DNA from: an uncultured Anaerolineales bacterium
GTDB lineage: Bacteria > Chloroflexota > Anaerolineae > CG2-30-64-16
Direction: 5' to 3'
Assembly (NCBI GenBank): GCA_964566325.1
Contig: CAZMIS010000003.1
Span: forward strand, 1-33,549
Length of the DNA stretch: 33,549 nt
The position numbers were made by a program, and so were the translations under genes. The notes below the pieces were generated by a model. It was not told the DNA's origin and did not search any database. It saw nothing but the letters and a program-made list of their open reading frames with translations. Below are positions 7,495 to 33,044 of this stretch, in pieces (the stretch's first letter is position 1; each line of letters begins with the position of its first letter).

Positions 7495-7504
7495 GCGCGG
7501 CGCG

Positions 7505-7513
7505 TGTTATAAT
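7505..7513 (+). promoter_or_regulatory. Extended -10 promoter element TGTTATAAT upstream of the aldo/keto reductase gene
   Basis: TGnTATAAT lies 45 nt upstream of ATG 7559, and the SD-like GGGAGA lies 7 nt before the ATG. Confidence 0.45.
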
Positions 7514-7558
7514 GGACCTCGCGACGAACGTCGCAACTTCCTCTTTCGGGAGAACCAG

Positions 7559-10894: not shown

Positions 10895-10931
10895 GTGATG
10901 TCCTGCCTGGAATCCTGGATTGCCCGCATCC

Positions 10932-10940
10932 ATTATAGCA
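10932..10940 (-). promoter_or_regulatory. Extended -10 element TGCTATAAT (minus strand) upstream of the first response regulator
   Basis: The reverse complement of 10932-10940 is TGCTATAAT, about 38 nt upstream of ATG 10894. Confidence 0.45.
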
Positions 10941-11051
10941 CCCTCCGGGCGGTGCTCTCATGCTGATCGTGCGCCCGACAACGAAGTGACCGGCCGTCCG
11001 CAGGCGATCGCTCGACTGCCGGCGATGTCCGCCTCTGGCATCACGCGACTG

Positions 11052-11687: not shown

Positions 11688-11690
11688 GAT

Positions 11691-12464
11691 TTACCTCTGT
11701 GCGATGCGCGCCACCAGGCGCTGCGTCCCTTTGAATTTGTTGTGCTTGACCTCAGGATAGAGCAGGCTCACCCCCACGCAGTACTTGCTGAACCCCATCT
11801 CACGCACGTGATGCCGGTGCATCAGTTGCATGAACTCCGAGCTGTCGCGGCGGCCCTGGTACTTGACCTCCGCCACCACGATGCCCGGCAACATCTCCAG
11901 GGTGTCCTCCCATTGGAAGGCCAGGTCCACATCCAGGGTGACCCGCTCGGGGCGGACCTTGCTGACTAACGTCACCCGCGTGGCATAGGTCCAGACCTTC
12001 GGGCTCAGCTGGCTCGCCGGATATGGGCATGCCTGGCTCAGGAACGCAGCGGCCTGTCCGTTGAGAGATGAGCCAACATCGGCCACGCGCAGCCGGCTCT
12101 TCACGGTGCGGCTCGGGCCCACCTTGTGCTTCACCTCCAGGAAGGCCAGGTCCGAGTCCAGATACTCGCGGCGGCGCACCTTGTAGCGGTCGCGCACGCC
12201 CGCGTGGTGGCGCCGGTAGAGCGCCATGTCGTCGGTGTCGAAGTAGAGCGTGCGGTTGCGGCTCCACGGCCGGCCGGCTGCCACGAAGGCCTTGTGCGTG
12301 CCGGACAGCTCTGCCAGAACCCCGGCCAGCAGGCTCTGCGGGAAGACGTACTTGACCTCCAGCCGGTCCAGCAACCGCGTCTCGTTCATTTCCGACAGCG
12401 TGATCGGTTCGTAAGCCGCGAGCAGCTCCCACGGCAGCGTCTCAGCATCGTTCAGTTGTGTCAT
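11691..12464 (-). CDS. VTC-domain (polyphosphate-polymerase-like, CYTH/triphosphate-tunnel) protein
   Basis: Strand motifs are RLEVKYVF, RTLYFDTDD, RYKVRRREY, AFLEVKHK and VVAEVKYQG. The protein is 257 aa, with a GAGG SD 6 nt upstream. Confidence 0.75.
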   Translation of the reverse strand: MTQLNDAETLPWELLAAYEPITLSEMNETRLLDRLEVKYVFPQSLLAGVLAELSGTHKAFVAAGRPWSRNRTLYFDTDDMALYRRHHAGVRDRYKVRRREYLDSDLAFLEVKHKVGPSRTVKSRLRVADVGSSLNGQAAAFLSQACPYPASQLSPKVWTYATRVTLVSKVRPERVTLDVDLAFQWEDTLEMLPGIVVAEVKYQGRRDSSEFMQLMHRHHVREMGFSKYCVGVSLLYPEVKHNKFKGTQRLVARIAQR

Positions 12465-12481: not shown

Positions 12482-14374
12482 TTACGGCCTGCGGCGGCCG
12501 CCGCCCACACCGGGCGCCATGCCGGGTGCCATACCGGGGCCGCCCCCTGCGCCGGTCACCACGGTCTCGAGCGTATAGCTCGCCACCTGCTGCCCCCCCG
12601 TGTACGTCCCGCCGCTGACCAGGCCGTCGGTCACGGCGCCGGTCGACTTGCCGCCGGTGTAAATCACGTAGGTCCCGCCCTTCACCAGGTCGGGCGAGGA
12701 GACCACGATCGACTGGAATGCCTTGCTGGGTGCAAAGGTCACGACGTCTGCACCGTCCTGGCTCACGATGTGCACCAGCGTCCCCGCGGCCTGCAGCGAT
12801 GAGAAGGTCTGTGCGAGGGAGTACTGCGTCGAGGTCGCACCCGGCGCCTGCGCCATGCCCGCGCTGCCCGCGGCCACCAGGAGCCCACCGGTGACGTTGA
12901 AGCTGCCGCCGTAGTCCAGCGCACCGTTGTTGTTGGACGTGGGGCCATTCACCAACACCGTGCCGCCGGTCATGTCGATGGGCCCGTTGACGTCGAGGCC
13001 GTCGCCGCCCGCGTCCACCGCCACGTACCCGCCGTTGATGTAGAGATGGCTGTTGCCCGTCTCGAAACCGGGCCTGCCCATGCCGCCGCCGGCCGCGGCC
13101 GCGCTGTCCGATCCGTTGATGCCGTCGTCCTGCGACGCCAGGCGGAGCACCCCGTCGTTGATCGTGATCGTTTCGCTCTCGACGCCCTCGTACGACTTCG
13201 TGATGTTCACCGTGCCGCCGTTCAGCGTGAACGCGAGGTTGGCACGCACCCCGTCATCGCCGGTGGCGAGGGTCAGCTCGCCGCCACCGATCGTGACGCT
13301 GTTGTTTGCGTTGAGCGCGTCGTCCCCCGCATCCACCTCCATCTTGCCGCCGGCGATGACGATATCGACGCCGGCCTTGAGACCCTTGCCGCTCTCGGCG
13401 CCCTTGCCGGCCGCGCTGCCGCCGCCTGCGCTCACCGTGATGTCGCCCCCACTGATGTCCAGCCGGGTCTCAGCCTGGATGCCATCCATCGCAGCGGTGA
13501 TGTCGAGCGTCCCGCCCTCGATGACGATGTAGCCCTCGGCCGCGTCTTCGTCGTTGTTCGCCTGGAGCCCGTCGCCCCCCGCGTTGATCGTGATCGTGCC
13601 ATCCTTGATCGCCAGCGAATCGCGGCCCACGATGCCATCGTTCGCCGCGTTCACCGTGATCGCGCCGCCCGTGATCTTCAGGTCGTCCTTGCCGGCAATG
13701 CCATTGTTGTAGTTCGCGTTGACCGTCAGCTCGCCCGCGCCGTTGATGGTCAGGTCGTCGTGGCTGAAGATCGCCGCATCCGGCTCGTCCGTCGCCTCCT
13801 CCCCTGCGCCAGCATCGGGGTAGACGTACGTCTCGCCGTCTGTGACCGTATTCTGCGTGCCTTCCGCCAGGGTCAGCACGACCTTTTCGGCATTGGCCAC
13901 GTAGATCGGTGCGCCGGTGGTGTTGGTGATGTCGGCGCCGTTCAGTTCGAGGACGACGTTCTCCGCGTCCTTCGTGTCGACGACGAGCTGGCCATCGCCC
14001 AGCTTGCCGCTGACGACGTATCGCCCGGCCGCGGTAATGGTCGCCACGCTGCCGTCGACCGATACGCCGCTGCCGTCGACGCGGATCGAGTCGCCGGCCA
14101 GCGTGATCGTCGCTGCCACCGGCTCGGCGTCGCCCGCGCCCGTCTGGAGATCGGCGCTGTCGTAGTCCACCGTCACCGGGGCGGTCGCAGCGACTGCGGC
14201 CGTAGCGACTGCGGTCGTCGCGGCTGCGGCCGTCGCGGCTGCGGTCGTAGCGGCTGCGGCCGTCGCGGCTGCCGCAGCCGGGATGCCGCTCGCCGCCTGT
14301 CCGGCGTTCGAACATGAGGCCGCGCCAACGAGCAGCGTGGCCGATAGAAACAAAGCCATGAAGCGTTTTTTCAT
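12482..14374 (-). CDS. Secreted lipoprotein of the Cthe_2159-like carbohydrate-binding beta-helix family
   Basis: Lipoprotein signal MKKRFMALFLSATLLVGAASC, then an Ala/Thr linker, then repeated turns (LTINGAGELTVNA, LKITGGAITVNAANDGI, IKDGTITINAGGDGL, IEGGTLDITAAMDGI...). An AGGGGAG SD precedes ATG 14374. Confidence 0.8.
   Translation of the reverse strand: MKKRFMALFLSATLLVGAASCSNAGQAASGIPAAAAATAAAATTAAATAAAATTAVATAAVAATAPVTVDYDSADLQTGAGDAEPVAATITLAGDSIRVDGSGVSVDGSVATITAAGRYVVSGKLGDGQLVVDTKDAENVVLELNGADITNTTGAPIYVANAEKVVLTLAEGTQNTVTDGETYVYPDAGAGEEATDEPDAAIFSHDDLTINGAGELTVNANYNNGIAGKDDLKITGGAITVNAANDGIVGRDSLAIKDGTITINAGGDGLQANNDEDAAEGYIVIEGGTLDITAAMDGIQAETRLDISGGDITVSAGGGSAAGKGAESGKGLKAGVDIVIAGGKMEVDAGDDALNANNSVTIGGGELTLATGDDGVRANLAFTLNGGTVNITKSYEGVESETITINDGVLRLASQDDGINGSDSAAAAGGGMGRPGFETGNSHLYINGGYVAVDAGGDGLDVNGPIDMTGGTVLVNGPTSNNNGALDYGGSFNVTGGLLVAAGSAGMAQAPGATSTQYSLAQTFSSLQAAGTLVHIVSQDGADVVTFAPSKAFQSIVVSSPDLVKGGTYVIYTGGKSTGAVTDGLVSGGTYTGGQQVASYTLETVVTGAGGGPGMAPGMAPGVGGGRRRP
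14183..14279 (-). repeat. About 15-bp tandem repeat encoding the Ala/Thr-rich linker of the lipoprotein
   Basis: Plus strand reads ...GCGGCTGCGGCCGTC GCGGCTGCGGTCGTA GCGGCTGCGGCCGTC GCGGCTGCC.... The protein segment is AAAAATAAAATTAAATAAAATTAVATAAVAATA. Confidence 0.6.
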
Positions 14375-14615
14375 CTGAATGAACTCCCCTGTCGCTATGT
14401 CATGGGGGCAGGATGACTCACGGAGCATCTCTCAGCGATCCATCCTGCCTCCTTACGCTTCGATCATCACACGCGATGCTGTGACCAACCCAAAGGAAAC
14501 CTGTGAAGAAGCTGAGAGCTGGGATCATCGGCCGAAGAGGAGGGAGGGCAGGAGGATAGTTCAGATGGTTGACGAAGGGAAAAGGATGGTTCGGGAAGGG
14601 ATTGAGAGGAAATGG

Positions 14616-20632: not shown

Positions 20633-21652
20633 TTGTCGAACGTCTCTATCAAGGATATTGCCCGGACTGCGGGCATCTCCCACTCGACTGTCTCCCGAGC
20701 GTTGAACGACAGCCCGCTGGTCAACGCTGAGACGAAGGCACGCATCCGCCGCCTGGCGGACACGTTGGGCTACTCCCCCGACGCGGGCGCGCGCAGCCTG
20801 GTCATGGGCCGCACCCACGCCATCGGTGTCGTCGTGACCACCATCGCGGACCCATTCTCCGCAGAAGTGGTCGAGGGAATCGAGCGCACGGCATACGCGC
20901 ACGGTTACTCCCTGATCCTGGCCGCGTCGAACGACAACCCGGAACGGGAGATCGCCGCGGTCGAGATGCTGCGCTCCAAGCGCGTCGATTCGATCATCGT
21001 CACCTCGTCACGCGTCGGTGCGCTGCACCAGGAACGGCTGCACACCACCGGCGTGCCGGTCATTCTGCTCAACAGCCACAGTCAGCGAGGCCTGCCGAAT
21101 GCCTACTCGGTGCGCGTGGACGATTTCCACGGCGGCCGATTGGCCACCGGGCACCTGATCGGGCTGGGACACCGGCGCATCGCACATGTCGCCGGCCTCG
21201 AGGGGCACAGCGTGAGCGCCGATCGCCTGGCGGGCTACCATCATGCGCTCGTCGCTGCCTGCCTCGACTGCGATCCGGCCTGCGTCGTGCCCGGAAACGG
21301 CCAGCTCAACGGCGGAGAGAGGGCGTTCGAAGCGCTGCTGGCGCTGCCCGACCGACCGACGGCCGTATTTTGCTACAACGACATGACCGCCATTGGGCTC
21401 CTCTCCGCGGCACGACGGGCCGGCATCGCCGTGCCCCGCGATCTGGCCGTGGTCGGGTTCGACAATATTCCACTCGCAGCCCACGTCTGCCCCGCGCTCA
21501 CGACGGTGGCCCAGCCCATGTTCGAGCTGGGCAAGCGCGCGATGGATATGGCGCTTGCGCTCATGGGGTGTCAGGGCGCCGCGCCCTGCGAGGTGACGGA
21601 CGTGGTCCTGCCGGGACAACTGATCATCCGGGATTCTTCTCTTGCCAGCTAA
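20633..21652 (+). CDS. LacI-family transcriptional regulator
   Basis: HTH IKDIARTAGISHSTVSRALN followed by a sugar-binding-type effector domain. The TTG start lies 6 nt after AGGTGA. Confidence 0.9.
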   Translation: MSNVSIKDIARTAGISHSTVSRALNDSPLVNAETKARIRRLADTLGYSPDAGARSLVMGRTHAIGVVVTTIADPFSAEVVEGIERTAYAHGYSLILAASNDNPEREIAAVEMLRSKRVDSIIVTSSRVGALHQERLHTTGVPVILLNSHSQRGLPNAYSVRVDDFHGGRLATGHLIGLGHRRIAHVAGLEGHSVSADRLAGYHHALVAACLDCDPACVVPGNGQLNGGERAFEALLALPDRPTAVFCYNDMTAIGLLSAARRAGIAVPRDLAVVGFDNIPLAAHVCPALTTVAQPMFELGKRAMDMALALMGCQGAAPCEVTDVVLPGQLIIRDSSLAS

Positions 21653-21684
21653 ATCAACGGTCTAATACAGATGGGAGGGCATCC

Positions 21685-22728
21685 ATGGACAAAATGAAGG
21701 CACTCGTGTTTCGCAACGCCGGGAAGCTCGAGCTCACCGAGATCCCCACTCCTAAGGTCACGCAGCCTGATGACGTGCTGCTGCGAGTGAAGGCGGTCGG
21801 GATCTGTGGCACCGATGTCAAGATCCTCGAGGGCAAGCACCACTTCAAGCCGGACACGGTGCTGGGCCACGAATTCTGTGGCGAGGTCATCGAGGTCGGC
21901 ACCCACGTGAAGTACATCAAGGTGGGCGACCGGGTTGCGATCGACAATAATATCCGCTGCGGCTTCTGTTCCTTCTGCCGCATGGGGATGTCCAGCCAGT
22001 GTGTCGAGATCAAGTTCAACGCGCTCGGCGTCATGCGCGACGGCGGATATGCCGAGTACTGCGTCGTGCCGGAGAAGCAGTGCTTCGTCCTGCCGGACGA
22101 GATCGACGACGTGCTGGGCACGCAGGTCGAGACCCTGGCGACGGTCGTCAACGGCATGAACACGCTCCAGATGCTGCCCTACGACTACGTGATGATCATC
22201 GGCTTTGGGCCCATCGGCTACCTCTTTGCCCAGTTCGCCAAGAACATCGCGGCCAAGGTCGCGGTGACCGAGATCGATCCCTTCCGCATCAACGTGGCAA
22301 AGGAATGCGGGCTGACGGTGTGGAACCCGCACGAGGTCGACGTTGTGCAGAAGATCACCGACTTCACCTATGGCCGGAAGGCCGACATCGTGATCGAGGC
22401 GACCGGCAACGCGCTGGCCCAGGCGCTCCAATGCGTGACGCCCGGCGGCAAGGTGCTGCCCTTCGGCATGGATTCGAGCGTGAACATCGACGTCAAGCCG
22501 AACGACATCACGCGGTGGGCCACCAAGGTTCTGGGGCTCTACCTCGGGCAGAACACGATGGTGCCCTCCATCCGCATCTTCCAGGAGAACCGCTTGAACA
22601 TGGGGCCGTTCTTCACCCAGGTGATCCCCCTGGAAGACGGCGTCGAGGCGTTCTGCGACCTGGGCCTGGATCCTGCGACCCTGGCGCATGGCCCCAAGAA
22701 GGCCATGAAGATCGTCATGAAGCCGTGA
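21685..22728 (+). CDS. Zn-dependent alcohol/polyol dehydrogenase (MDR family, sorbitol/idonate dehydrogenase-like)
   Basis: Motifs are GICGTDVKILEG, GHEFCGEV, the structural-Zn cluster CGFCSFCRMGMSSQC, and Rossmann IGFGPIGYL. A GGGAGGG SD precedes ATG 21685. Confidence 0.85.
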   Translation: MDKMKALVFRNAGKLELTEIPTPKVTQPDDVLLRVKAVGICGTDVKILEGKHHFKPDTVLGHEFCGEVIEVGTHVKYIKVGDRVAIDNNIRCGFCSFCRMGMSSQCVEIKFNALGVMRDGGYAEYCVVPEKQCFVLPDEIDDVLGTQVETLATVVNGMNTLQMLPYDYVMIIGFGPIGYLFAQFAKNIAAKVAVTEIDPFRINVAKECGLTVWNPHEVDVVQKITDFTYGRKADIVIEATGNALAQALQCVTPGGKVLPFGMDSSVNIDVKPNDITRWATKVLGLYLGQNTMVPSIRIFQENRLNMGPFFTQVIPLEDGVEAFCDLGLDPATLAHGPKKAMKIVMKP

Positions 22729-22733
22729 ACACG

Positions 22734-23744
22734 ATGAACAAGACGAACATCGCCGTCATCGGCACCGGCCGGATGGGCAGCGTGCACGTCCGGAACCTGG
22801 TGCGCAAGATCCCCGAGGCCAACCTGGTCGCGGTGTGTGATATCCGGCTGGAGGTGGCGCAGGCACTCGCGGACGAGTTGGGCATCGAGCGCGTGGTGCG
22901 CGACTATCATGAACTGCTGGCCGATCCGTCGATCGCCGCGGTGCTGATCGCCACCAGCACGGATACCCATGCGATGATCGTCGCCCACGCGGCCCGGGCA
23001 GGCAAGCACATCTTCTGCGAGAAGCCGTTGGCACTCGACCTGGCGAGCATCGACGCGGCGCTTGCGGCCGTCGACGCAGCCGGCGTCAAGCTCCAGGTGG
23101 GCTTCAACCGTCGCTTCGATGCGGCCCTGCGCCGGGTGCAGGAGACGGTGGCGTCGGGCGAGATCGGCCGGCCGTGCATCCTGCGGATCGCCAGCCGCGA
23201 CCCCGAGCCGCCCTCGACCCAGTATGCCAGGGAGTCCGGCGGCATGTACCTCGACATGACCATCCACGACTTCGACATGGCCCGCTTCCAGGTGGGTGAG
23301 GTGGAAGAGGTGTACGCCATGGGCGGCGTGCTGGTGGCGCCGTGGCTCGGCGAGGCGGGCGACATCGACACCGACATTGTCACCCTGCGTTTCGCCAACG
23401 GTGCACTGGGCGTGATCGACAACAGCCGCCAGGCCGTCTACGGATACGATCAGCGGCTCGAAGTATTCTGCTCGAACGGCATCGCCATGGTGGAGAACGA
23501 GACGGAGCAGTCGGCAGTGACGGGCCTGAAGGACGGCTTCCACTCGGCCAGACTGCCCTATTTCTTCATGCAGCGCTATGCCCAGTGTTACGTGGACGAA
23601 GTATGTGAGTTCATCGCCTGCGTGCGCGACGACAAGCCGACGCCGACGACCGGTTTCGACGGCCGCCAGGCGGTCGTGCTGGGGCATGCTGCGTGGAAGT
23701 CGTACCACGAGAACCGGCCCGTCCGCGTGAGCGAGATCGGATAA
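22734..23744 (+). CDS. Gfo/Idh/MocA-family oxidoreductase (inositol 2-dehydrogenase-like)
   Basis: Rossmann IAVIGTGRMG and FCEKPLALDL (EKP motif). The protein is 336 aa. Confidence 0.85.
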   Translation: MNKTNIAVIGTGRMGSVHVRNLVRKIPEANLVAVCDIRLEVAQALADELGIERVVRDYHELLADPSIAAVLIATSTDTHAMIVAHAARAGKHIFCEKPLALDLASIDAALAAVDAAGVKLQVGFNRRFDAALRRVQETVASGEIGRPCILRIASRDPEPPSTQYARESGGMYLDMTIHDFDMARFQVGEVEEVYAMGGVLVAPWLGEAGDIDTDIVTLRFANGALGVIDNSRQAVYGYDQRLEVFCSNGIAMVENETEQSAVTGLKDGFHSARLPYFFMQRYAQCYVDEVCEFIACVRDDKPTPTTGFDGRQAVVLGHAAWKSYHENRPVRVSEIG

Positions 23745-23811
23745 GGAACACACAGCACTTGCATCGAAGCTCCGATCCGGTGGCAGGTCTTCACACGGAA
23801 GGAGATACAGC

Positions 23812-24600
23812 ATGGCCAATGTCGTTGAGATGTCCCGCATCTGCAAGAGCTTCGGCCCCGTGCAGGCACTGCGGGACGTCGACCTGCACCTGGGCTACGG
23901 GGAAGTGCTTGGCCTGGTGGGCGACAACGCGGCCGGCAAGTCGACCCTGATGAAGGTGCTCACGGGCGCGCACGCGCCGGACTCGGGCGCCATCCGCTTC
24001 GATGGCGCAGAGGTCAGGTGGGCCAGTCCGCATGAATCGCGCCTGGCCGGCATCGAGATGGTCTACCAGGACTTCGCGCTGGCAGGCAACCTGGACATCT
24101 GCTCGAACATCTTCCTGGGTCGGGAGATGGCGAAGCCGTTCCTGGGGCGGGGACCCCAGATGCTCGACGAAAAGTCGATGGAGCAGGCCGCACGCTCCCT
24201 GCTGGACCGGCTCAAGATCGAGATCCGCTCCGTGCGGCTCAGAGTCGAAAACCTGTCTGGCGGGCAGCGCCAGGCCGTCGCCATCGCGCGTGCGACCGCC
24301 TTCCAGGCCAAGGTCGTGATCATGGATGAGCCGACCGCCGCGCTGGCGGTCAAAGAGGTCTCCAAGGTGCTGGAGATCATCCGGGGGCTGAAGGAGCACA
24401 ATATCGCGGTTATCATCATCAGCCATCGTCTGCAGGACATCTTCCAGGTATGCGACCGCATCATGGTTCTCCGGCAGGGCCGGAATGTGGGCGAGCGACT
24501 GGTCGGACAAACGACGATGGACGACATCGTGGGGATGATGGTCGGCGCAAAAGAGGACGGCCAGGTCGACAGCCTCCGCAGCGTCGCCGCGGGCGCGTAG
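23812..24600 (+). CDS. Sugar ABC transporter ATP-binding protein (single NBD)
   Basis: Walker A GDNAAGKST, signature LSGGQRQ and Walker B VIMDEPTAAL. A GGAAGGAG SD precedes the start. Confidence 0.9.
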   Translation: MANVVEMSRICKSFGPVQALRDVDLHLGYGEVLGLVGDNAAGKSTLMKVLTGAHAPDSGAIRFDGAEVRWASPHESRLAGIEMVYQDFALAGNLDICSNIFLGREMAKPFLGRGPQMLDEKSMEQAARSLLDRLKIEIRSVRLRVENLSGGQRQAVAIARATAFQAKVVIMDEPTAALAVKEVSKVLEIIRGLKEHNIAVIIISHRLQDIFQVCDRIMVLRQGRNVGERLVGQTTMDDIVGMMVGAKEDGQVDSLRSVAAGA

Positions 24601-24632
24601 GCATCGCCATCGCTGGCAAGGGAGGGTAACCG

Positions 24633-25649
24633 ATGCCCTGTGACGCACGAGACCCTGTGAAAAAACCGGATCGGTTGACTCGCGCTCTGCTCGACCGTTA
24701 CGGCATTGTAGCAGCGCTGCTGGTCATGATCGTCGCCCTCACCATTTTGAAGCCGGCCTACTTCCCCACGGTGGGCAACCTGACCAACGTGGCGCGGCAG
24801 ATTTCGTTCAACGCGATGCTGGCTCTCGGCCAGTTCATCGTGATCCTGACTGCCGGCATCGACCTGTCTGTCGGCTCCGTCGCGGCGCTGAGCATGGTCA
24901 TGCTAGCCCTGGCGACCCACAGCGGCCTGCCGGACGCACTTTCACTGCTGATCGCGCTCGGCGTGGGGACGCTGGCCGGCCTGCTCAACGGCCTGGGGCT
25001 CACCAAACTGCGCCTGCCGCACCCGTTCATTGCGACGCTGGCCATGCTCAACATCGCGCGCGGGATCACCTACCTGATCTCGGACGGCGTCCCGATCAGC
25101 GGGCTGCCGCCGGGCTTGCGTTGGTTTGGCTCCAGTGATCTTCGGTTGTGGGGGGAGGGCGACAAGCTCGTCGCAATCCCGGTGTCGTTGATCGTCGTGC
25201 TCGTGGCCTACGGCCTGGCGTGGGTGTTCCTGGTGCGTTCGCGCACCGGCCGCCACATCTATGCTGTGGGCGGCAACCCACAGGCCGCGCGCCACGCGGG
25301 CATCAACGTAGATCGCGTTCTCAACATCGTTTACGTGCTGTGCGGGCTGACGGCCGCCATGGGCGGGATACTCCTGGCTGGTCGTACGAACTCGGGCTAT
25401 CCCAATGCAGGCACCGGCGCCGAGCTGGACGCGATCGCCGCCGTCATCATCGGCGGCGCGAGCTTCTTCGGCGGGCGGGGCACCGTCGGGGGCACTTTCG
25501 TCGGGGTGTTGATCATGGGGCTGTTGCGCAACGGCCTGAACCTGATGGACGTGTCCTCGTTCTGGCAGATGGTCGTGATCGGAGTCGTCATTGTCCTGGC
25601 CGTGTTCATCGATGTGCTCAGGCAACGTGCGTCGCAGCAAGCTCGTTGA
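24633..25649 (+). CDS. Sugar ABC transporter permease (RbsC/monosaccharide type)
   Basis: 338 aa, about 9-10 hydrophobic helices. Motifs are GIDLSVGS and FFGGRGTVGGT. An AGGGAGGG SD precedes the start. Confidence 0.9.
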   Translation: MPCDARDPVKKPDRLTRALLDRYGIVAALLVMIVALTILKPAYFPTVGNLTNVARQISFNAMLALGQFIVILTAGIDLSVGSVAALSMVMLALATHSGLPDALSLLIALGVGTLAGLLNGLGLTKLRLPHPFIATLAMLNIARGITYLISDGVPISGLPPGLRWFGSSDLRLWGEGDKLVAIPVSLIVVLVAYGLAWVFLVRSRTGRHIYAVGGNPQAARHAGINVDRVLNIVYVLCGLTAAMGGILLAGRTNSGYPNAGTGAELDAIAAVIIGGASFFGGRGTVGGTFVGVLIMGLLRNGLNLMDVSSFWQMVVIGVVIVLAVFIDVLRQRASQQAR

Positions 25650-25765
25650 ACCCGGCTGCGGACTCTGCTGAAGAAGGGAGGCAATCAGCAAAGAACGTGC
25701 ACGGGAGCTCCGAAGGCAGACAGTTTCTTGCCGATTTCGCCGTTTTCCAGAAAAGGAGAAACACC

Positions 25766-27613
25766 ATGAAACGCAGCCTGTTCTCTGCGATGAGTCTGAC
25801 TCTGGTGATCGCTCTGTTGCTTGCGGGGTGCGCGCCCATCACGACCGCGCCCGCAGCCCCGCAAGCAGCGGCGCCTACCCAGGCGCCGGCGCAGGCCCCG
25901 GCCGCACCGGCTAAGGTCACGCTCCTGCTGAGCATGAAGGGACCGGGCGGGGGCAACCCGTTCTGGGCAGAGGTGGAGCGGGGCGCCGTAGAAACGGCAG
26001 CCGCCAACAACGTGGACATCGTCGTGCTTGCCCCGCCGGCTGAGACCGACGTGGCCACCCAGATCAGCCAGATCGAGGATCAGATCACCAAGAAAGTGAG
26101 CGCCATCATCGTGGCGCCCACCGACGTGGTCGGCCTCAACCCCACCTTCGACAAGGCCAAGGCGGCCAACATCCCCGTCCTCTTCGTCGACACCAAGGGT
26201 GACTGGGCCGACGCCCTCACCTTCATCGGCACCAACAACCGCAACGGCGGCAAGCTCGCCGGCGAGTTCATCTGCAAGCAGCTGGGCAACCAGGGCAAGG
26301 CCGCCCTCATCACCGGCGTGATGAGCCAGCAGACCCACATCGATCGCATCGGCGGCGCTGAGGAGGCGCTCAAGGCCTGCGGCATCACCATCGTCGCCCA
26401 GCAGCCCGCCAACTCCGATCGCGCGCTCGGCCAGACCGTGATGGAGAACATCCTCACCGCCAACCCGGACGTGAACGCGGTCTTCGCCAGCAACGACCTG
26501 ATGGCCCTCGGCGCCATGGAGGCCATCAAGACGGCCAAGAAATCCGGCGTCGTCGTCGTCGGCTTCGACGCCAACCCCGACGCGGTGAAGTCCATCGAAG
26601 CCGGCGAGATGGCGGCCTCGATCGCCCAGAGCCCCTACAACATGGGCAAGTTCGGCGTGGAAGCCGCACTCAAAGCCATCAAGGGCGAGACGATCGAGAC
26701 GAACATCGATACAGGCACAGAAGTAGTTTCGAAGAGCGGCGCTGCCGAAGCGGTCAAGCCCGACAAGGCCTACAAGCTGCTGTTGAGCATGAAGGGTCCC
26801 GGCGGCGGCAACCCGTTCTGGGCGGCCGTCGAGAAGGGCGCCGTAGAAACGGCAGCCGCCATGGGCGTCGAATTGGCGGTCCTGGCCCCGCCGGCTGAGA
26901 CCGACGTGGCCACCCAGATCAGCCAGATCGAGGACCAGATCACCAAGAAGGTGGAGGCCATCATCGTGGCGCCCACCGACGTAGTCGGCCTCAACCCCAC
27001 CTTCGACAAGGCCAAGGCGGCCAACATCCCCGTCCTCTTCGTCGACACCAAGGGTGACTGGGCCGACGCCCTCACCTTCATCGGCACCAACAACCGCAAC
27101 GGCGGCAAGCTCGCCGGCGAGTTCATCTGCAAGCAGCTGGGCAACCAGGGCAAGGCCGCCCTCATCACCGGCGTGATGAGCCAGCAGACCCACATCGATC
27201 GCATCGGCGGCGCTGAGGAGGCGCTCAAGGCCTGCGGCATCACCATCGTCGCCCAGCAGCCCGCCAACTCCGATCGCGCGCTCGGCCAGACCGTGATGGA
27301 GAACATCCTCACCGCCAACCCGGACGTGAACGCGGTCTTCGCCAGCAACGACCTGATGGCCCTCGGCGCCATGGAGGCCATCAAGACGGCCAAGAAGTCC
27401 GGCGTCGTCGTCGTCGGCTTCGACGCCAACCCCGACGCGGCCGCCTCGATCCTGGCCGGTGAGATGACGGCCTCGATCGCCCAGAGCCCCTACAACATGG
27501 GCAAGTTCGGCGTGGAGGCCGCAGTCAAGGTGTTGATGGGAGAGACGATCGAAACGAACATCGACACCGGGACGGAAGTGGTCACGATCGACAACGCCGC
27601 CAACTTCAAGTAA
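25766..27613 (+). CDS. Sugar-binding lipoprotein with two tandem RbsB-type (type I PBP) modules
   Basis: AGGAG SD, signal peptide with lipobox LLAGC, and a Pro/Ala linker. Two about 285-aa modules follow, each starting LLLSMKGPGGGNPFW and ending ETNIDTGTEVV. Confidence 0.9.
   Translation: MKRSLFSAMSLTLVIALLLAGCAPITTAPAAPQAAAPTQAPAQAPAAPAKVTLLLSMKGPGGGNPFWAEVERGAVETAAANNVDIVVLAPPAETDVATQISQIEDQITKKVSAIIVAPTDVVGLNPTFDKAKAANIPVLFVDTKGDWADALTFIGTNNRNGGKLAGEFICKQLGNQGKAALITGVMSQQTHIDRIGGAEEALKACGITIVAQQPANSDRALGQTVMENILTANPDVNAVFASNDLMALGAMEAIKTAKKSGVVVVGFDANPDAVKSIEAGEMAASIAQSPYNMGKFGVEAALKAIKGETIETNIDTGTEVVSKSGAAEAVKPDKAYKLLLSMKGPGGGNPFWAAVEKGAVETAAAMGVELAVLAPPAETDVATQISQIEDQITKKVEAIIVAPTDVVGLNPTFDKAKAANIPVLFVDTKGDWADALTFIGTNNRNGGKLAGEFICKQLGNQGKAALITGVMSQQTHIDRIGGAEEALKACGITIVAQQPANSDRALGQTVMENILTANPDVNAVFASNDLMALGAMEAIKTAKKSGVVVVGFDANPDAAASILAGEMTASIAQSPYNMGKFGVEAAVKVLMGETIETNIDTGTEVVTIDNAANFK
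25925..27583 (+). repeat. In-frame tandem direct repeat, period 855 bp (two copies)
   Basis: Copy 1 is about 25925-26728 and copy 2 about 26780-27583. 26129-26541 is identical to 26984-27396 (413 nt, compared by eye) and the flanks are diverged. Confidence 0.9.
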
Positions 27614-27621
27614 ACCCGAAT

Positions 27622-27686
27622 GCCGGGCAGGGGTCAGGCACTCCCCCTGCCCGGCGCCGAACGACCTCCCCGCCAGCGGGAGGTCG
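27622..27686 (+). terminator. Two consecutive GC-rich hairpins after the binding-protein gene (candidate terminator, no T-tract)
   Basis: GCCGGGCAGGGG (27622-27633) pairs with CCCCTGCCCGGC (27644-27655). CGACCTCCC (27662-27670) pairs with GGGAGGTCG (27678-27686). Confidence 0.45.
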
Positions 27687-27724
27687 ACCGTGAGTGCCAA
27701 AACCCGATATTGGAGTAACGACAC

Positions 27725-28849
27725 ATGTCCGAACAGCCATTGCCCGCCGGATTGCTGCCGACCGAACTGCCTGACCTCTTCTTCGAGGACAACTCAGTCG
27801 GCCGGATGAAGAAAGAAGTCTGGGACGCCAGCGACGCAGAGATCGATGCCATCCTGGCAGAGTACGGCGTGCCGTCGCCGGTGGAATGGGGTAAGCCCGG
27901 TGCTTACATCCAGACTACCACGCGCTGGCAGGTCGAGCAGAACCGGAAGAAGAACGACATCGTATTCATTCCGGTCGGCTGCACCGAGCTGCATGGCCAA
28001 CATCTGCCCAGCGCATCTGATACGCTTTACGTCAGCCAGATCTGCGAGGGCGTGCGGCGCTACACGGCGCGGCGCGGCGCGGCGGTCAACCTGGCGCTGC
28101 CTCCGTTGAACTACGGAGCTCATCCGTACCATCATCTCGGCATGCCCGGCACCGTGATCGTGCGCGAACACGTCGTGCGGGAGATGATGATCGACGTGAT
28201 GTTGGGCCTGTGGAACGATGGCTTCCGCAAGCAGCTGATCGTCAACAATCACGGCCAGCTGTGGGTGCTGGAATCGGCCGTCCAGGAGTTCCAGAAGCGC
28301 TACCAGCTGCCCGGCATCTTCCGCGTCATCGACTGGCACCGCGGGGTGCGCGAGTTCTTCCGCGCGACCGACCGCGGCGGCCGCCTCGACACCAACTTCG
28401 TCCACGCGGACGAGTCGGAAACTTCGCTCGGCCTGCTGCTGCATCCCGAGATGGTGGACATGGCGTACGCGGTCGACACCGAAGGCAAGAGCTACCTGCC
28501 CGACGGCCACTTCGACAAGTCGGTCGATCCGTTCGGGCGCCCGTCGCGCTGGTCGGAGGGAGAGGGTCACTTCGCCATCGAGATCGCGGCCACCCCCGAG
28601 GGTGTCGTGGGCAAGTCGACGCACGGCACGGCCCAGAAGGCCAAGCGCCCCCTTGCGGCGATCCTGAAGTACCTCACGCTGTGGAACGACCACGTGCTCG
28701 AGGCCTTCCCGCCCGGCACGACGCCGCCGGTGGAAGAGGTCACGCTGCGCACGGAAGCGGAGATGGAGCCCTACCTGCGCGAGCCGCTGAGCAAGGGCTG
28801 GAAGCCGGTCTACGCGCTGCCGCGCATCGGCCAGGGGACAGAGGTCTGA
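27725..28849 (+). CDS. Creatininase-fold amidohydrolase family protein (long form, 374 aa)
   Basis: Motifs are FIPVGCTELHGQHLPSASD, NNHGQ and HADESETS. An extra C-terminal region of about 100 aa is present. Confidence 0.8.
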   Translation: MSEQPLPAGLLPTELPDLFFEDNSVGRMKKEVWDASDAEIDAILAEYGVPSPVEWGKPGAYIQTTTRWQVEQNRKKNDIVFIPVGCTELHGQHLPSASDTLYVSQICEGVRRYTARRGAAVNLALPPLNYGAHPYHHLGMPGTVIVREHVVREMMIDVMLGLWNDGFRKQLIVNNHGQLWVLESAVQEFQKRYQLPGIFRVIDWHRGVREFFRATDRGGRLDTNFVHADESETSLGLLLHPEMVDMAYAVDTEGKSYLPDGHFDKSVDPFGRPSRWSEGEGHFAIEIAATPEGVVGKSTHGTAQKAKRPLAAILKYLTLWNDHVLEAFPPGTTPPVEEVTLRTEAEMEPYLREPLSKGWKPVYALPRIGQGTEV

Positions 28850-28878
28850 GGCCAATTACGGGCATAAGGAGAGATGGT

Positions 28879-30075
28879 ATGACGGGCAAAATGATGGGCG
28901 TGACCCTGGTGGCGGACTGGGCGCCGAAGCCGGGCTTCAAGCTGGGCGCGAAGGATATCGAAGGACGCCAGACCTACCTGGGCAGCCTCGTGTGGAAGAA
29001 TCCAAGGATCGAGATGCGGGAGTACGACATTCCGACGCCCGGGCCGGACGAGGTGCTGATCGAGGTGAAGGCGTGCGGTATCTGTGGCTCGGATGTCCAC
29101 ATGGCCCAGGCGGAGCCGGATGGCTACATCTTCTACCCCGGGCTGACGGGCTTCCCTTGCATCCTGGGACACGAATTCTCCGGCGTGGTGGTCGACGCGG
29201 GCAAGAAGGCCTTCGACAAGCGGACCAACAAGCCGTTCAAGGGCGGCGAGCCGGTGACTTCGGAAGAGATGCTCTGGTGTGCGCAATGCCGCCCATGCGC
29301 AGATGGATGGCCCAACCACTGCGAGCGGCTGGACGAGATCGGCTTCAACGTGAACGGCGCGTACGCCAAGTACATGGTGGTGCCCGCGCGAACGGTGTGG
29401 AGCCTGGAGCCGCTGAAGAGGATCTACAAGGGCGACGATCTTTTCATCGCCGGCAGCCTCGTGGAACCCACCACCGTGGCTTACAACGCGGTGATCGAGC
29501 GCGGCGGCGGCATCCGGCCGGGCGATCGCGTGGTCATCCTCGGCGGCGGCCCGATTGGCCTGGCGGCCTGCGCGATCCTGAAGCGCGCCGGCGCGTCCCA
29601 GGTCATCATCTCCGAGCCGCAGAAGGAGCGCACCGACCTGGCCCTGCAGATCGGCGCGGACTATGCCATCAACCCGGTCAAGGAGGACTTTGCCGAGCGC
29701 GTCCTGGAGATCACCGAGGGCATGGGCGCGGACCTCTTCATGGAGGCCACCGGCCTGCCGACGGTCGTCTATCCGGGCATCGAGCGCGTGATCTGGGAAG
29801 GCCGGACGCTCAACAGCCGCGTGGTCGTCACGGCCCGCGCCGATGCCAAGATGCCGGTCACGGGCGAAGTGCTGCAGGTGCGCCGCGCCAGCATCATCGG
29901 CGCACAGGGCCATTCGGGCCACGGCAACTTCCCGCGCGTGATCGAGTGCATGGCCACCGGGATGGACATGACGCGCATCAGCACCAAGAAAGTCACCCTG
30001 GAAGAAGTGCCGGAAAACATCGTCAGGTTGCAGACCGATCGAAGCGAGTGTAAGATCACCTACGTCGCTGGCTAA
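28879..30075 (+). CDS. Zn-dependent dehydrogenase (MDR family, long form, 398 aa; scyllo-inosose 3-dehydrogenase-like)
   Basis: Motifs are GICGSDVHM, GHEFSGVV, CAQCRPCADGWPNHC and GGGPIGLAA. An AAGGAGAG SD precedes ATG 28879. Confidence 0.85.
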   Translation: MTGKMMGVTLVADWAPKPGFKLGAKDIEGRQTYLGSLVWKNPRIEMREYDIPTPGPDEVLIEVKACGICGSDVHMAQAEPDGYIFYPGLTGFPCILGHEFSGVVVDAGKKAFDKRTNKPFKGGEPVTSEEMLWCAQCRPCADGWPNHCERLDEIGFNVNGAYAKYMVVPARTVWSLEPLKRIYKGDDLFIAGSLVEPTTVAYNAVIERGGGIRPGDRVVILGGGPIGLAACAILKRAGASQVIISEPQKERTDLALQIGADYAINPVKEDFAERVLEITEGMGADLFMEATGLPTVVYPGIERVIWEGRTLNSRVVVTARADAKMPVTGEVLQVRRASIIGAQGHSGHGNFPRVIECMATGMDMTRISTKKVTLEEVPENIVRLQTDRSECKITYVAG

Positions 30076-30091
30076 CGGCAGCATTGCGAAG

Positions 30092-30125
30092 GTGGCCCTG
30101 GGCGGCGACCGTTGCGCAGGGCCAC
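30092..30125 (+). other. Intercistronic hairpin (9-bp stem)
   Basis: GTGGCCCTG (30092-30100) pairs with CAGGGCCAC (30117-30125). It lies between the ADH stop and the MBL gene start. Confidence 0.3.
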
Positions 30126-30137
30126 GGCAGAAGCGCG

Positions 30138-30917
30138 ATGAAGATACAATTTCTCGGCACCGGCACCGGCCTGCCCAGCCGTGAGCGAGCGCCGTCAGGG
30201 CTGCTCGTTCGGCTCGGCAGGCCCGAGGGACGTCCGGAGGAGGCGCGAGCTTCCGATGGTCCGTCTTTGCTCGTCGACTGCGGCTCAGGCACCATCGGCC
30301 GCCTGCTGGCCGCGGGGGTCGATCCCACACGGCTCAACGACATCTACTCCACCCACGAACACGGCGATCACGCGGCTGACCTCGTCCCGTTCATGCAGGC
30401 GATGGACCTGGCCGGCCGCTCTGCTGACCTCCACTGGACCGCGCCCGCTGCGATGGCCGGATTCCTGCAAGGCCTGCTCGCACTGCAGCTCTGGGCCACA
30501 CCGAAGACCTATCGTTGGATCCATCACCCTGCGGAGAGCGAGCCGTACTGCGGCGACGGCTGGTCGGTGCGCGCAGCGCGCACGGGCCACACGCGCGACT
30601 CCGTGGGCTATCGCTTCGATGCGGAGGGGCGGTCAGTCGTCATCTCGGGCGACGCGACCGGCCATCCCGACCTGGTGGCGCTGGCCCGCGGGGCCGACAT
30701 GGTGGTGCTGGAGTGCAGCTACCCTGACCAGTCGGGTATACCCGGGCACTTGACGCCCACATCGGCGGGCCGGCTTGCCACTGAAGCCGGCGCCCGCCAC
30801 CTTGTCCTCACGCACTTCTACCCGGTCTGCCGCATGGACGAGATCGCCGCCCAGGCAAACAGGGCATTCGCCGGGAGGCTGACCCTGGCGTATGACGGGC
30901 TGGTGCTCGAGGTCTGA
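30138..30917 (+). CDS. MBL-fold metallo-hydrolase (RNase Z-like)
   Basis: Starts MKIQFLGTGTG and carries the HxHxDH motif as THEHGDH, with later His/Asp ligand contexts (GHTRDS, SGDATGH, LTHF). Confidence 0.8.
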   Translation: MKIQFLGTGTGLPSRERAPSGLLVRLGRPEGRPEEARASDGPSLLVDCGSGTIGRLLAAGVDPTRLNDIYSTHEHGDHAADLVPFMQAMDLAGRSADLHWTAPAAMAGFLQGLLALQLWATPKTYRWIHHPAESEPYCGDGWSVRAARTGHTRDSVGYRFDAEGRSVVISGDATGHPDLVALARGADMVVLECSYPDQSGIPGHLTPTSAGRLATEAGARHLVLTHFYPVCRMDEIAAQANRAFAGRLTLAYDGLVLEV

Positions 30918-30997
30918 CATATCTCAAGGAGGTGCTGTTCGTAACCAACCCTGTCTCTGACGACCGTTCGCCCCTTCGTCTCTTCAAGGAGGAACCG

Positions 30998-32143
30998 ATG
31001 AATCGCAAGTTGTTGATCCCGATCGCATGTCTGTTGGTTCTGGCCACGGTGCTGCAGGGATGTGCACCGGCCAGTCAGCAAGTCACCCTCTCCATCGTCA
31101 CCGCAGGTGACACGAACATGGAGGAACTCCAGCGCAACGTCTTCGGCCCTGAGTTCGTCAAGACCAACCCCAACGTCACGATCAATGTGGTTGGCACAGG
31201 CCCTGGCGACGCAGGCAGCGCCGCGATCCACACCAAGCTCAAGGCGCAGCAGGACGCCGGCACCAAGACCTGGGACATCGACGTCGCCATCGTGCACCAG
31301 AGCATTATGGGACAGATGATCAAGGACGGCCTTCTGCTGAAATACGTGCCCGACACCGGCGCGGCCAGCCTGCTGACCGCCGGTGATGCCAAGAACGCGC
31401 TCGGCACCGACGTGGATGGCTACGTCATCCCCATGTTCCACAGCCAGACCGCCATCGCTTACAACTCAGCGAAGGTGCCCAACCCGCCCGCCACGTACGA
31501 AGAGTTGGTGAGCTGGATCCAGGCCAACCCGAACCGCTTCGGCTACAACGGCGTCAAGGGCGGCATGAGCGGCGTCGCATTCACCGGCGGCTACCTCTAC
31601 TGGAAGACCGGCAAGTACGACCAGTTGACCAAGGGACCCTACGACAAAGCGATCGAGGCTGACTGGATTTCCATGTTCAAAGAACTGAAATCGCTGCCGG
31701 CCACCATCACCACGGGCAACAACGACACGCTGGACAGGCTGAACCGGGGCGAGATCGACATGGGCCCGGTGTGGGTCGACATGCTGGTGCTGTGGAAGAA
31801 CGAAGGCCGCATGGATCCCAACGTGAAGATGAAGCTGATCGAGCCAGGCATGCCCGGCCAGCCCATGTACGTCGTCATCCCTGCGAAGTCGGCCAACGCC
31901 GCAGCAGCGAAGAAGTTCGCCGAGTTCATCACGAGCCCGGAACAGCAAGCCAAGGTCATCGTCGAGAAACAGGGGTGGTACCCCGGCATCGATCCGACGA
32001 AGGTGCTGCCCAACGTCTCCGAAGATGGCAAGCAGAAGCTGTTCGGCGACATCTCGGCTGAGACCCTCAACAAGGCCGGGCTGTCCTTCCCGCTGTCTGA
32101 TTACATGAAGGACTTCCAGGCCGCGTACGAAGAAGCGAAGTAA
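30998..32143 (+). CDS. ABC transporter substrate-binding lipoprotein (family-1 / PotD-Fe3+-like)
   Basis: AAGGAGG SD and signal peptide with lipobox LQGCAP. The 381-aa mature domain is typical of extracellular solute-binding proteins. Confidence 0.8.
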   Translation: MNRKLLIPIACLLVLATVLQGCAPASQQVTLSIVTAGDTNMEELQRNVFGPEFVKTNPNVTINVVGTGPGDAGSAAIHTKLKAQQDAGTKTWDIDVAIVHQSIMGQMIKDGLLLKYVPDTGAASLLTAGDAKNALGTDVDGYVIPMFHSQTAIAYNSAKVPNPPATYEELVSWIQANPNRFGYNGVKGGMSGVAFTGGYLYWKTGKYDQLTKGPYDKAIEADWISMFKELKSLPATITTGNNDTLDRLNRGEIDMGPVWVDMLVLWKNEGRMDPNVKMKLIEPGMPGQPMYVVIPAKSANAAAAKKFAEFITSPEQQAKVIVEKQGWYPGIDPTKVLPNVSEDGKQKLFGDISAETLNKAGLSFPLSDYMKDFQAAYEEAK

Positions 32144-32195: not shown

Positions 32196-32222
32196 GGTTT
32201 GCCACGTACTGAGGATGGGGAG

Positions 32223-33044
32223 ATGAAGCGACTCCGAGAATGGGGCTGGGTTCTGGTGGCGGCGCCGTCGCTGGCGGTCGTGGTGGCCCTCTTCTTCGTG
32301 CCCTTCGTCCGGTCGGCGATCACCAGCTTCCAGGACGAGGCCGGGGTATTCACCCTCGACAACTACGCCACCGCGTACCGGCTCTATGCCGCCGACGTGG
32401 TCTACACCATCTTCGTATCCGGCGTCAGCCTGCTGATCGTGCTGATCATCGCCGTGCTGGTGTCGGGCTTCGTCCGCATCTACGGCGGAAAGTGGGTCGA
32501 GTTTCTGTTCAAGATTCCCCTCTTCGTGCCCTTTGTGGTGGTGGGACACGCGATGCGCGTCTTCCTCGCGCCGCATGGCCTGCTCAACTCCACTCTGGCG
32601 CAGGTCGGGCTGGTCAACCTGGACAACCCGCCGTCGATCGCGTTCACGTGGGTCGGCATCTCGGTGGCGCTGGCCTGGAAGAACATGGCGCTGGCAACCC
32701 TGCTGATCCTGGGGGCATTCGAGAGCGTGGGCAATACGTACCTGGAGGCCGCGCGCAACTTCGGCGCAGGCTGGTTCCGCCAGGTCAAGGACGTGCTGCT
32801 GCCCATGTCGCTGACCTCCATCGCGGTGGCTGCCGTGCTGATCTTCACCTCCATGCTGGCCTCCTTCTCGATCCCGATGATGATCGGCACGGGCAAGGGC
32901 GCGCAGATGCTCATGATCGACGTCTACTATCGGATCGTCTACCAGCAGGATTACGGCGTGGCGAATGCGCTCGGCGTGGTCTCCTACATCACGGCCATGG
33001 GTGCTGCGATCTATTACCTGCGATCCGTCACCAAGCGAGGGTAG
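32223..33044 (+). CDS. ABC transporter permease (binding-protein-dependent inner-membrane component)
   Basis: 273 aa, 6 predicted TM segments, with the EAA-like region YLEAARNFGAGWFRQ. Confidence 0.85.
   Translation: MKRLREWGWVLVAAPSLAVVVALFFVPFVRSAITSFQDEAGVFTLDNYATAYRLYAADVVYTIFVSGVSLLIVLIIAVLVSGFVRIYGGKWVEFLFKIPLFVPFVVVGHAMRVFLAPHGLLNSTLAQVGLVNLDNPPSIAFTWVGISVALAWKNMALATLLILGAFESVGNTYLEAARNFGAGWFRQVKDVLLPMSLTSIAVAAVLIFTSMLASFSIPMMIGTGKGAQMLMIDVYYRIVYQQDYGVANALGVVSYITAMGAAIYYLRSVTKRG

Follow-up and report, generated by a model that had tools for sequence, protein, structure and literature searches.

Two ribose-type binding modules on one lipoprotein chain in an Anaerolineales inositol-type operon, with a central core homogenised by repeated gene conversion

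Substrate-binding domains arranged in series are known from GlnPQ, an importer of the ATP-binding cassette (ABC) type from Lactococcus lactis, in which two tandem binding domains that differ in specificity are fused to the permease (PMC8025302). The myo-inositol ABC transporter IbpA-IatP-IatA of Caulobacter and Sinorhizobium uses a single-module periplasmic binding protein, IbpA (PMC2597717). At the level of gene evolution, a survey of concerted evolution compiled 26 long-lasting cases of bacterial gene conversion, tufA/tufB among others, and no binding protein is listed there (PMC6053082). Here we analyse a gene from an uncultured Anaerolineales bacterium that encodes a lipid-anchored protein with two complete RbsB-type modules. 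The gene resides at 25766..27613 of a 33,549-nucleotide stretch of DNA (GenBank assembly GCA_964566325.1, contig CAZMIS010000003.1, positions 1 to 33,549), which as a whole is called the window below. To our knowledge, work on covalently linked binding domains has been devoted almost entirely to amino-acid and osmolyte importers with permease-fused domains. The window gene belongs instead to a large family of sugar/cyclitol lipoproteins with two or three modules of the type I fold, for which we found neither a paper nor, among the listed PDB matches, a solved structure. A literature search likewise gave no description of tandem or duplicated ribose-type or Peripla_BP_4 binding proteins, an absence that is no proof in itself.

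The window protein resembles GlnPQ in that two complete domains stand in series in one polypeptide on the outer face of the membrane, in a cell without free periplasm, which places several capture sites close to one translocator. However, the GlnPQ domains have the type II fold (cluster F) and bind amino acids, whereas the window modules are predicted to have the type I fold and to be of the sugar/polyol type. GlnPQ is also permease-fused, whereas the window protein is a separate lipoprotein: the permease gene ends at 25649, and the binding-protein gene is equipped with a ribosome-binding site, a signal peptide and a lipobox of its own. In addition, the window modules share their pocket residues and relatives reach three modules. 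Similarity to RbsB and other CUT2 systems is seen in the best sequence match (2ioy, E 3.5e-51), in the best structure matches, in the kind of permease and in ligand-contact positions that are kept (the NPF motif, D142, R194, N243, D268 and Q288). We nevertheless do not count the protein as RbsB, as it carries two modules per chain, has alanine and threonine at contact positions equivalent to N64 and R90, is accompanied by a single-domain ATPase and is encoded beside IolG, IolM and IolN, with neither ribokinase nor RbsD among the operon genes called within 20633-30917.

The arrangement of an RbsB-like binding protein and an RbsC-like permease inside an inositol catabolic cluster parallels that of IbpA. 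The match of the window protein to 4irx, the solved structure of IbpA (E 1.9e-26), is weaker than its matches to ribose-binding proteins, however, and the catabolic genes are of the IolM/IolN type rather than of the IolCDE route. As with tufA/tufB, the paralogues are nearer to each other than to their orthologues, synonymous sites included, through repeated non-reciprocal recombination. Unlike tufA/tufB, the partners are adjacent modules in one reading frame, and conversion is limited to an internal tract with a border that is common across lineages.

We consider it highly probable that the gene encodes a two-module capture lipoprotein of inositol type, produced by an old duplication whose 457-nucleotide core has been converted repeatedly. 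The mosaic that first points to this history becomes visible when each base is compared with the base 855 nucleotides downstream, which gives 812 alignable positions. Positions 26129-26541 equal 26984-27396 over 413 nucleotides without a mismatch, and after a single mismatch at 26542 the copies are identical again for 43 nucleotides (26543-26585). Mismatches are dense at 25920-26029 and sparse from there to 26128; a second dense zone extends from 26586 to about 26730. Past about 26731 the copies are unrelated, as copy 1 enters the linker and copy 2 proceeds to the C-terminus and stop. In total, 59 of the 812 positions are mismatched, with 30 of 210 in the N-flank, one of 457 in the core and 28 of 145 in the C-flank, such that the flanks diverge by 14-19%. 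When the mismatch positions were shuffled 20000 times, the longest clean run obtained was 167 nucleotides. No shuffle reached the observed run of 413, which places the mosaic well outside chance and shows it to be real. An independent repeat search also gives the 855-nucleotide spacing, though only for the first 300 nucleotides (at 90% identity), and Tandem Repeats Finder is silent on this repeat because its maximum period is 500. At the protein level the modules differ at 24 of 279 residues, seven of which are in the C-terminal tail, a segment that runs into the linker in module 1 and terminates the chain in module 2.

An earlier note, made from the window sequence without database searches, had described the 855-nucleotide offset, the 413 identical nucleotides, the substitution at 26542, the 43 further identical nucleotides and the diverged flanks. 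All of these agree exactly with the base-by-base comparison, and the amino-acid strings that it quoted for the flanks are all present. Evenly spread divergence, which the same note named as the outcome that would remove the conversion tract, is not seen.

The history of the repeat was examined with an alignment of 18 modules, taken from the window and from seven related loci. The alignment was split at the tract borders of the window and used for neighbour-joining trees (200 bootstrap replicates) and for Nei-Gojobori estimates of synonymous (dS) and nonsynonymous (dN) distances. In both flank trees, the last modules of the window and of its relatives L001/L002 (NCBI), L003 (ENA) and L004 (JGI) form one clade and the internal modules form another. 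In the core tree, the modules cluster by genome. The last-module clade has bootstrap support of 80% from the N-flank and 92% from the C-flank but none (0%) from the core. Support for genome-specific clades is the other way round, at 94-100% for the core and 0-7% for the flanks.

Synonymous distances separate the same partitions. Between the core paralogues of one gene, dS is 0.009 in the window, 0.067 in L003, 0.166 in L001 and 0.284 in L004, with dN of ~0-0.02. Between core orthologues, dS from the window is 0.17 for L001, 0.52-0.58 for L003 and 0.88-0.97 for L004, and up to 20% of nucleotides differ. These orthologue distances mean that the core is not mutationally cold, but has been reset within genomes at different times. 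Flank paralogues, by comparison, show dS of 0.37-0.81; in the window, the values are dS 0.37 and dN 0.10 for the N-flank, and dS 0.71 and dN 0.11 for the C-flank. Orthologous N-flanks have dN of only 0-0.05 (with dS up to 0.9) against ~0.10 for paralogues. The separation is weaker for the C-flank, where orthologue dN (0.01-0.12) and paralogue dN (0.11-0.25) touch. This position-specific contrast in dN indicates that the flank differences are maintained, more clearly so in the N-flank.

A core of low divergence between diverged flanks is thus not peculiar to the window, but is found in L001/L002, L003 and L004 as well. The right border of the tract at 26586 is common to all four lineages and coincides with 10 mismatches in 14 nucleotides; the left border lies at 26101-26128. 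We conclude that intragenic gene conversion has acted repeatedly on a duplication that is older than the split of these lineages. The earlier note had offered an older duplication with a homogenised centre as one of its explanations, and the partitioned trees, bootstrap values and dS from four related lineages bear it out. A recent duplication was rejected on the basis of the synonymous distances. Exclusion of the flanks from conversion may be due to selection or to a mismatch barrier.

The two-module structure recurs in other assemblies. A 95%-identical orthologue of 615 residues, with the same neighbours, is present on 72-kb and 200-kb contigs of two NCBI metagenome-assembled genomes (MAGs; L001/L002). 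Three modules are present in a gene of 92% identity on a 490-kb contig from ENA (contig_40462, L003), a JGI contig (L004) encodes an intact three-module protein of 892 residues, and a 714-kb Chloroflexia contig carries two modules that share a 423-nucleotide identical run. Comparison with homologues, as proposed in the earlier note, therefore yields orthologous loci with two or three modules. Moreover, the 398-nucleotide segment 26586-26983, which comprises the module 1 C-flank, the linker and the module 2 N-flank, has positional orthologues in four other assemblies and thus could not have been invented by an assembler. Assemblers tend to collapse such repeats, not create them. Judging from its name and many frameshift-broken genes, contig_40462 is an uncorrected long-read-type assembly. 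A frameshift between 5805 and 6001 interrupts its three-module gene (5640-8331), several genes nearby are in fragments too, and the module spacing of 847 nucleotides is no multiple of three; the frameshift is likely to be a long-read indel error rather than a sign of pseudogenisation.

The 90%-identity cluster of the window protein also includes members of 330 residues, which corresponds to 615 minus 285. One of these, P0123, is found on three short contigs (1.5-2.5 kb) that come from other metagenomes but from the same population, and of which the two SPAdes contigs have coverages of 1.9x and 3.9x. One-module genes were located at L089 1262-2254, L090 311-1303 and L091 174-1166. These contigs are 1-3 nucleotides from an exact splice of the module 1 start, the core and the module 2 end, and their flanking DNA is identical. 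In the simplest reading they are probably short-read collapses over the 413-nucleotide repeat. Other variants were noted in the same collection. Two of them, P0131 and P0132, are chimeric 330-residue forms of the L001-type allele, and in P0129 the junction differs. P0124 (615 residues) is of L001 type through most of module 2 and of window type in its last ~90 residues, which reflects either recombination between strains at the repeat or chimeric assembly.

Each module appears to be complete. Prediction of the full chain, which the earlier note had suggested, gives an AlphaFold2 model (computed from the homologues) with two complete modules of alternating strands and helices and a mean predicted local distance difference test (pLDDT) of 88. 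Block values in module 1 are mostly 84-97, and the signal peptide and Ala/Pro tether (residues 1-45) are modelled as disordered with pLDDT <50. In a Foldseek search of the PDB, the top 50 matches each span one module (~275-295 columns) with target-normalised TM scores of 0.7-0.9. The best of these are ribose-binding proteins, scores to ribose-, allose- and glucose-binding proteins are 0.8-0.9, and no tandem of the type I fold is found among the 50 listed. The Pfam family PF13407 (Peripla_BP_4) matches in two stretches (425 bits in total, cut-off 35), and the lipobox cysteine, Cys22, is invariant across 39 aligned homologues.

The binding pockets of the two modules were compared through alignment to 2ioy. 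The ligand contacts N13, F15, F16, N64, D89, R90, R141, N190, D215 and Q235 of ribose-binding protein (RBP; 2DRI numbering) have identical equivalents in both modules, and all 24 amino-acid differences between the modules fall outside them. Given these identical pocket residues, both modules most likely bind the same ligand. D142/D427, R194/R479, D268/D553 and Q288/Q573 are invariant across the 39 homologues. At the positions of RBP N64 and R90 the window protein has Ala117 and Thr143, which argues against ribose. That one module might lack cleft residues and serve as a degenerate spacer, a possibility raised in the earlier note, is not what the alignment shows. On the RBP domain borders, combined with the secondary-structure string of the model, the core would correspond by homology mostly to the C-lobe plus one beta-alpha unit of the N-lobe. 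On the same homology, most of the residues that differ belong to the N-lobe (69, 72, 81-86, 112 and 302-306), and others to one C-lobe helix (274, 275 and 278). The phrase 'central ligand-binding core' used in the earlier note is thus apt for a homogenised centre, but not for one that is specifically ligand-binding, since pocket residues also sit in the flanks.

Evidence on the ligand comes from the operon (Table 1). Neighbouring IolG, IolM and IolN genes, each scoring above its equivalog cut-off, support the inositol guess of the earlier note. For the first description of the IolM/IolN route of inositol degradation, made in Thermotoga maritima, PMC3750489 cites Rodionova et al. 2013 (pmid 23441918). 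In Candidatus Roseilinea, a tandem homologue with 56% identity resides among genes with the Pfam domains of the classical inositol enzymes, namely PfkB (IolC), a thiamine pyrophosphate (TPP) enzyme (IolD), AP_endonuc_2 (IolE), GFO_IDH_MocA (IolG) and DeoR (IolR). Because two distinct inositol pathways adjoin homologous transporters, our best guess for the ligand is myo-inositol or a close cyclitol. On this gene context, the protein probably binds such a compound and not ribose. Automated naming may suggest otherwise: the RbsB equivalog NF007936 gives 382.8 bits against a cut-off of 337, but this is passed only by summing the two module stretches. A single module receives roughly half of the score and falls short of this single-domain cut-off. 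Tandem proteins may therefore be automatically named RbsB, and hence ribose-binding, despite an inositol context.

The ATPase and permease genes lie directly upstream of the binding-protein gene on the same strand, an order that is kept in relatives. As there is one permease gene and one half-size ATPase gene, the translocator is presumably formed by a permease homodimer and an ATPase homodimer. On the RbsA model (501 positions), the alignment of the ATPase is confined to positions 2-249. A fused double ATPase is usual in CUT2 systems. Matches to the XylG and MglA models are likewise limited to the first half, and the half-size ATPase is common to all tandem-binding-protein loci that we examined. 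The Zn-dependent dehydrogenase (21685-22728) matched every NCBIfam equivalog below its cut-off. Synteny with the 95%-identical relative breaks right after IolM. In L001, two AP_endonuc_2 genes follow (10336-12065) that possibly encode an IolO-like epimerase/isomerase. In the window, a gene of the metallo-beta-lactamase fold (30084-30917) takes their place, and beyond it lie genes of another ABC system (SBP_bac_1, 30932-32143; permease, 32199-33044).

Taken as a mechanism, our proposal is that the protein acts as the lipid-anchored substrate-binding component of a CUT2-type ABC importer encoded in a LacI-regulated IolG-IolM-IolN operon. Both modules would bind one ligand, probably myo-inositol or a close cyclitol, and the tandem layout would presumably benefit the cell, which lacks a free periplasm, by placing twice as many capture sites on each anchor close to the translocator. 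The duplication would be older than the divergence of at least four related lineages. From then on, the 457 nucleotides at the centre would have been overwritten between modules several times, independently in each lineage, through homologous recombination between direct repeats that results in non-reciprocal gene conversion, with the most recent event in the lineage of the window. The outer ~210 and ~145 nucleotides would have escaped, their position-specific amino acids being kept under purifying selection. The same recombination could also alter copy number, giving rise to three-module relatives and to one-module forms, whether these exist or are merely assembled. Recombination between direct repeats is an ordinary mechanism; what is new is the object, a multi-module importer receptor with a different fold and mode of attachment.

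Other explanations account for parts of these data. That only one module exists, the repeat having been traversed twice or two strains having been joined, is very improbable, and we reject the assembly artefact that the earlier note had considered as far as the two-unit structure is concerned. It is true that the window is a 33.5-kb MAG contig and that one-module contigs with identical flanks lie 1-3 nucleotides from an exact collapse. However, these contigs lack 26586-26983, which is conserved by position in four assemblies from different projects. They are also short (1.5-2.5 kb) and thinly covered (1.9-3.9x), the conditions under which a 413-nucleotide exact repeat collapses, and large contigs with long-read-style names hold two- and three-module genes. 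A uniformly old duplication, with a core held identical by extreme purifying selection and no conversion, can be dismissed with near certainty. Many core residues are conserved and core paralogue dN is indeed close to zero, but the identity extends to synonymous positions (dS between paralogues is 0.009 in the core and 0.37-0.71 in the flanks), and comparison with orthologues refutes the idea, because their cores diverge (dS 0.17-0.97) and the core tree follows genomes. Cycles of unequal crossing-over, to three modules and back, or re-duplication in each lineage might replace conversion tracts altogether. Close relatives do vary among one, two and three modules, the internal modules of three-module genes are 95-97% identical in their flanks, as expected after a recent duplication of a whole module, and throughout the family the modules of one protein are always nearer to each other than to those of other clades. 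Crossing-over in the core nevertheless predicts hybrid modules that combine an N-flank of the last type with a C-flank of the internal type or vice versa, and none occurs in the two- and three-module genes examined. With flanks that are positionally orthologous and only the core homogenised, transfer of an internal patch is needed, either by conversion or by double crossover, and we regard the exchange of whole modules as a distinctly unlikely substitute.

A further question is whether the modules have diverged in function, as SBD1 and SBD2 of GlnPQ have, with the flanks encoding either different ligands or the docking of one module on the permease. Amino-acid differences in the flanks are conserved by position (clearly in the N-flank, more weakly in the C-flank), border 26586 is the same in four lineages, and the differing residues are mostly in the N-lobe by homology to RBP. 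Conversely, none of the pocket-equivalent residues differs between the modules, the C-terminal tail accounts for seven of the 24 differences, and the modules of the Roseilinea protein are 99% identical throughout, which indicates that differentiation is unnecessary for the architecture to persist. We therefore view functional divergence of the modules as unlikely. An equally tentative suggestion extends it to the family: lipid-anchored RbsB-fold proteins with two or three modules, in Chloroflexota, Bacillota and others, could constitute a distinct selected architecture with position-specific module roles. Flank residues, mostly of the N-lobe and held apart by selection over a long period (orthologue dS up to ~0.9), would then determine which module docks on the permease homodimer and which serves as an outer site for capture or hand-over. 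Elsewhere in the modules, recurrent conversion would preserve the match between them and with it their common ligand specificity. If true, this would represent a second, independently evolved answer to the problem solved by GlnPQ, reached with another fold class and for sugars or cyclitols.

Several observations weigh against the proposal of a two-module inositol receptor with a repeatedly converted core. For the ligand, gene context is the sole basis of assignment, the best matches among solved structures are ribose-binding proteins, and the myo-inositol binders 4irx, 4yo7 and 4rxm rank lower. Replacement of the AP_endonuc_2 genes also means that the pathway may be incomplete on this contig. 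For the architecture, the whole-chain model has a predicted template modelling score (pTM) of 0.57, which leaves the orientation of one module to the other undefined. For the repeat, the one-module contigs are possibly a true deletion allele, the perfect identity of the core could in part be an assembler consensus of two slightly different copies, and the true copy number could be three, with two near-identical internal modules collapsed. Lastly, the similarity of modules across the family could derive in part from repeated independent duplications and not from continuous conversion.

The architecture is widespread. The earlier note did not regard tandem modules as a normal feature of RbsB-like proteins, but they turn out to be common in sequences from Chloroflexota, Bacillota and Fibrobacter. 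One module served as query for an exhaustive search against 1.84 billion representatives of 50%-identity clusters, and two matched stretches were present in 35 of the best 150. Among the matches listed in a scan of a genome collection, the best was from a 55%-identical Anaerolineae MAG, and the nearest homologues with a name are Chloroflexota. Among the matches listed, tandem forms come from Anaerolineae, Chloroflexia, Clostridia, Lachnospiraceae, Fusibacter, Petrocella and Fibrobacter, and the closest Proteobacteria (Pelagibacteraceae, Devosia and Rhodobacteraceae) have single modules. Across a set of 39 two-module proteins, the two modules of one protein are 71-99% identical, compared with 35-55% between clades. 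Inside a clade, each module finds its best match in the module at the same position. DNA-level identity between modules is 73% in Fusibacter genes, an Anaerolineaceae gene has a 798-nucleotide identical run, and Petrocella and Fibrobacter genes contain internal tracts of 100% identity.

Some matches to the search proved to be of other kinds. Alphaproteobacterial single-cell genomes (L042 and others) gave 2.5-kb matches that were considered as candidate three-module genes and rejected, since each consists of a single-module gene and a distant second binding-protein gene beyond an oxidoreductase. Four homologues of ~640-660 residues (P0030, P0031, P0186 and P0197) match RbsB-type modules over only about half of their length, which in P0186 and P0197 is the C-terminal half. 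Two of the four also have a Bmp/PnrA-family domain (PF02608). From their domain matches, these four appear to be hetero-tandem proteins that join two binding-protein families.

The tract is an unusually clean bacterial example of internal conversion with a border conserved across lineages, and it provides a tidy, testable case that could separate selection from divergence barriers as the cause of its limits. There is also a practical consequence, because the repeat yields one-module collapses in short-read assemblies, such that tandem proteins may be mis-sized as well as misnamed as ribose-binding.

Table 1. Positions of the binding-lipoprotein gene, its parts and the surrounding operon genes in the window.
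Feature	Position	Strand	Basis
LacI-family regulator, likely operon repressor	20633..21652	+	LacI helix-turn-helix and Peripla_BP_3; position kept in orthologous loci
Zn-dependent alcohol dehydrogenase	21685..22728	+	ADH_N and ADH_zinc_N
IolG, inositol 2-dehydrogenase	22734..23744	+	TIGR04380, 428.8 bits, cut-off 355
Half-size ABC ATPase, 262 residues, single nucleotide-binding domain	23812..24600	+	One ABC_tran stretch
Single RbsC-like permease gene, 338 residues	24633..25649	+	BPD_transp_2
Shine-Dalgarno-like AAGGAG	25752..25757	+	8 nucleotides before ATG; read directly from the sequence
Two-module binding lipoprotein, coding sequence, 615 residues from the ATG at 25766, plus stop	25766..27613	+	Open reading frame and translation; two Peripla_BP_4 stretches
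Signal peptide, lipobox LLAG-C, Cys22 at 25829-25831	25766..25831	+	Start of the protein, sequence MKRSLFSAMSLTLVIALLLAGC
Ala/Pro/Gln-rich tether from anchor to module 1, residues 23-51	25832..25918	+	Composition, low pLDDT, no modelled secondary structure
Module 1, residues 52-322, complete type I periplasmic-binding-protein fold	25919..26731	+	AlphaFold2 model, Foldseek
Module 1 N-flank, internal-module type; module 2 partner 26774-26983	25919..26128	+	dS/dN, trees
Converted core, copy 1, residues 122-273	26129..26585	+	Self-comparison at 855 nucleotides, dS, trees
Module 1 C-flank, internal-module type; module 2 partner 27441-27585	26586..26730	+	dS/dN, trees
Inter-module linker KSGAAEAVKPDKAY, residues 323-336	26732..26773	+	No counterpart in module 2 past its C-terminus; pLDDT 72-78
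Module 2, residues 337-615, complete binding module	26774..27610	+	Pfam, model, module alignment, Foldseek
Converted core, copy 2, residues 407-558	26984..27440	+	As for copy 1
IolN, 3-dehydro-scyllo-inosose hydrolase, creatininase fold	27725..28849	+	NF041098, 309.2 bits, cut-off 245; Pfam Creatininase
IolM, scyllo-inosose 3-dehydrogenase	28879..30075	+	NF041097, 518 bits, cut-off 450

Two other features of the window were recorded. A tandem repeat of 15/30 nucleotides at 14181-14272 (GCGGCCGTAGCGGCT, ~6 copies) lies in the minus-strand gene 12482-14428, which encodes a Cthe_2159 carbohydrate-binding-domain protein, and probably specifies a short low-complexity peptide repeat. An open reading frame at 7139-8725, unrelated to the binding protein, encodes an aldo/keto reductase domain together with a 4Fe-4S dicluster domain at the C-terminus.

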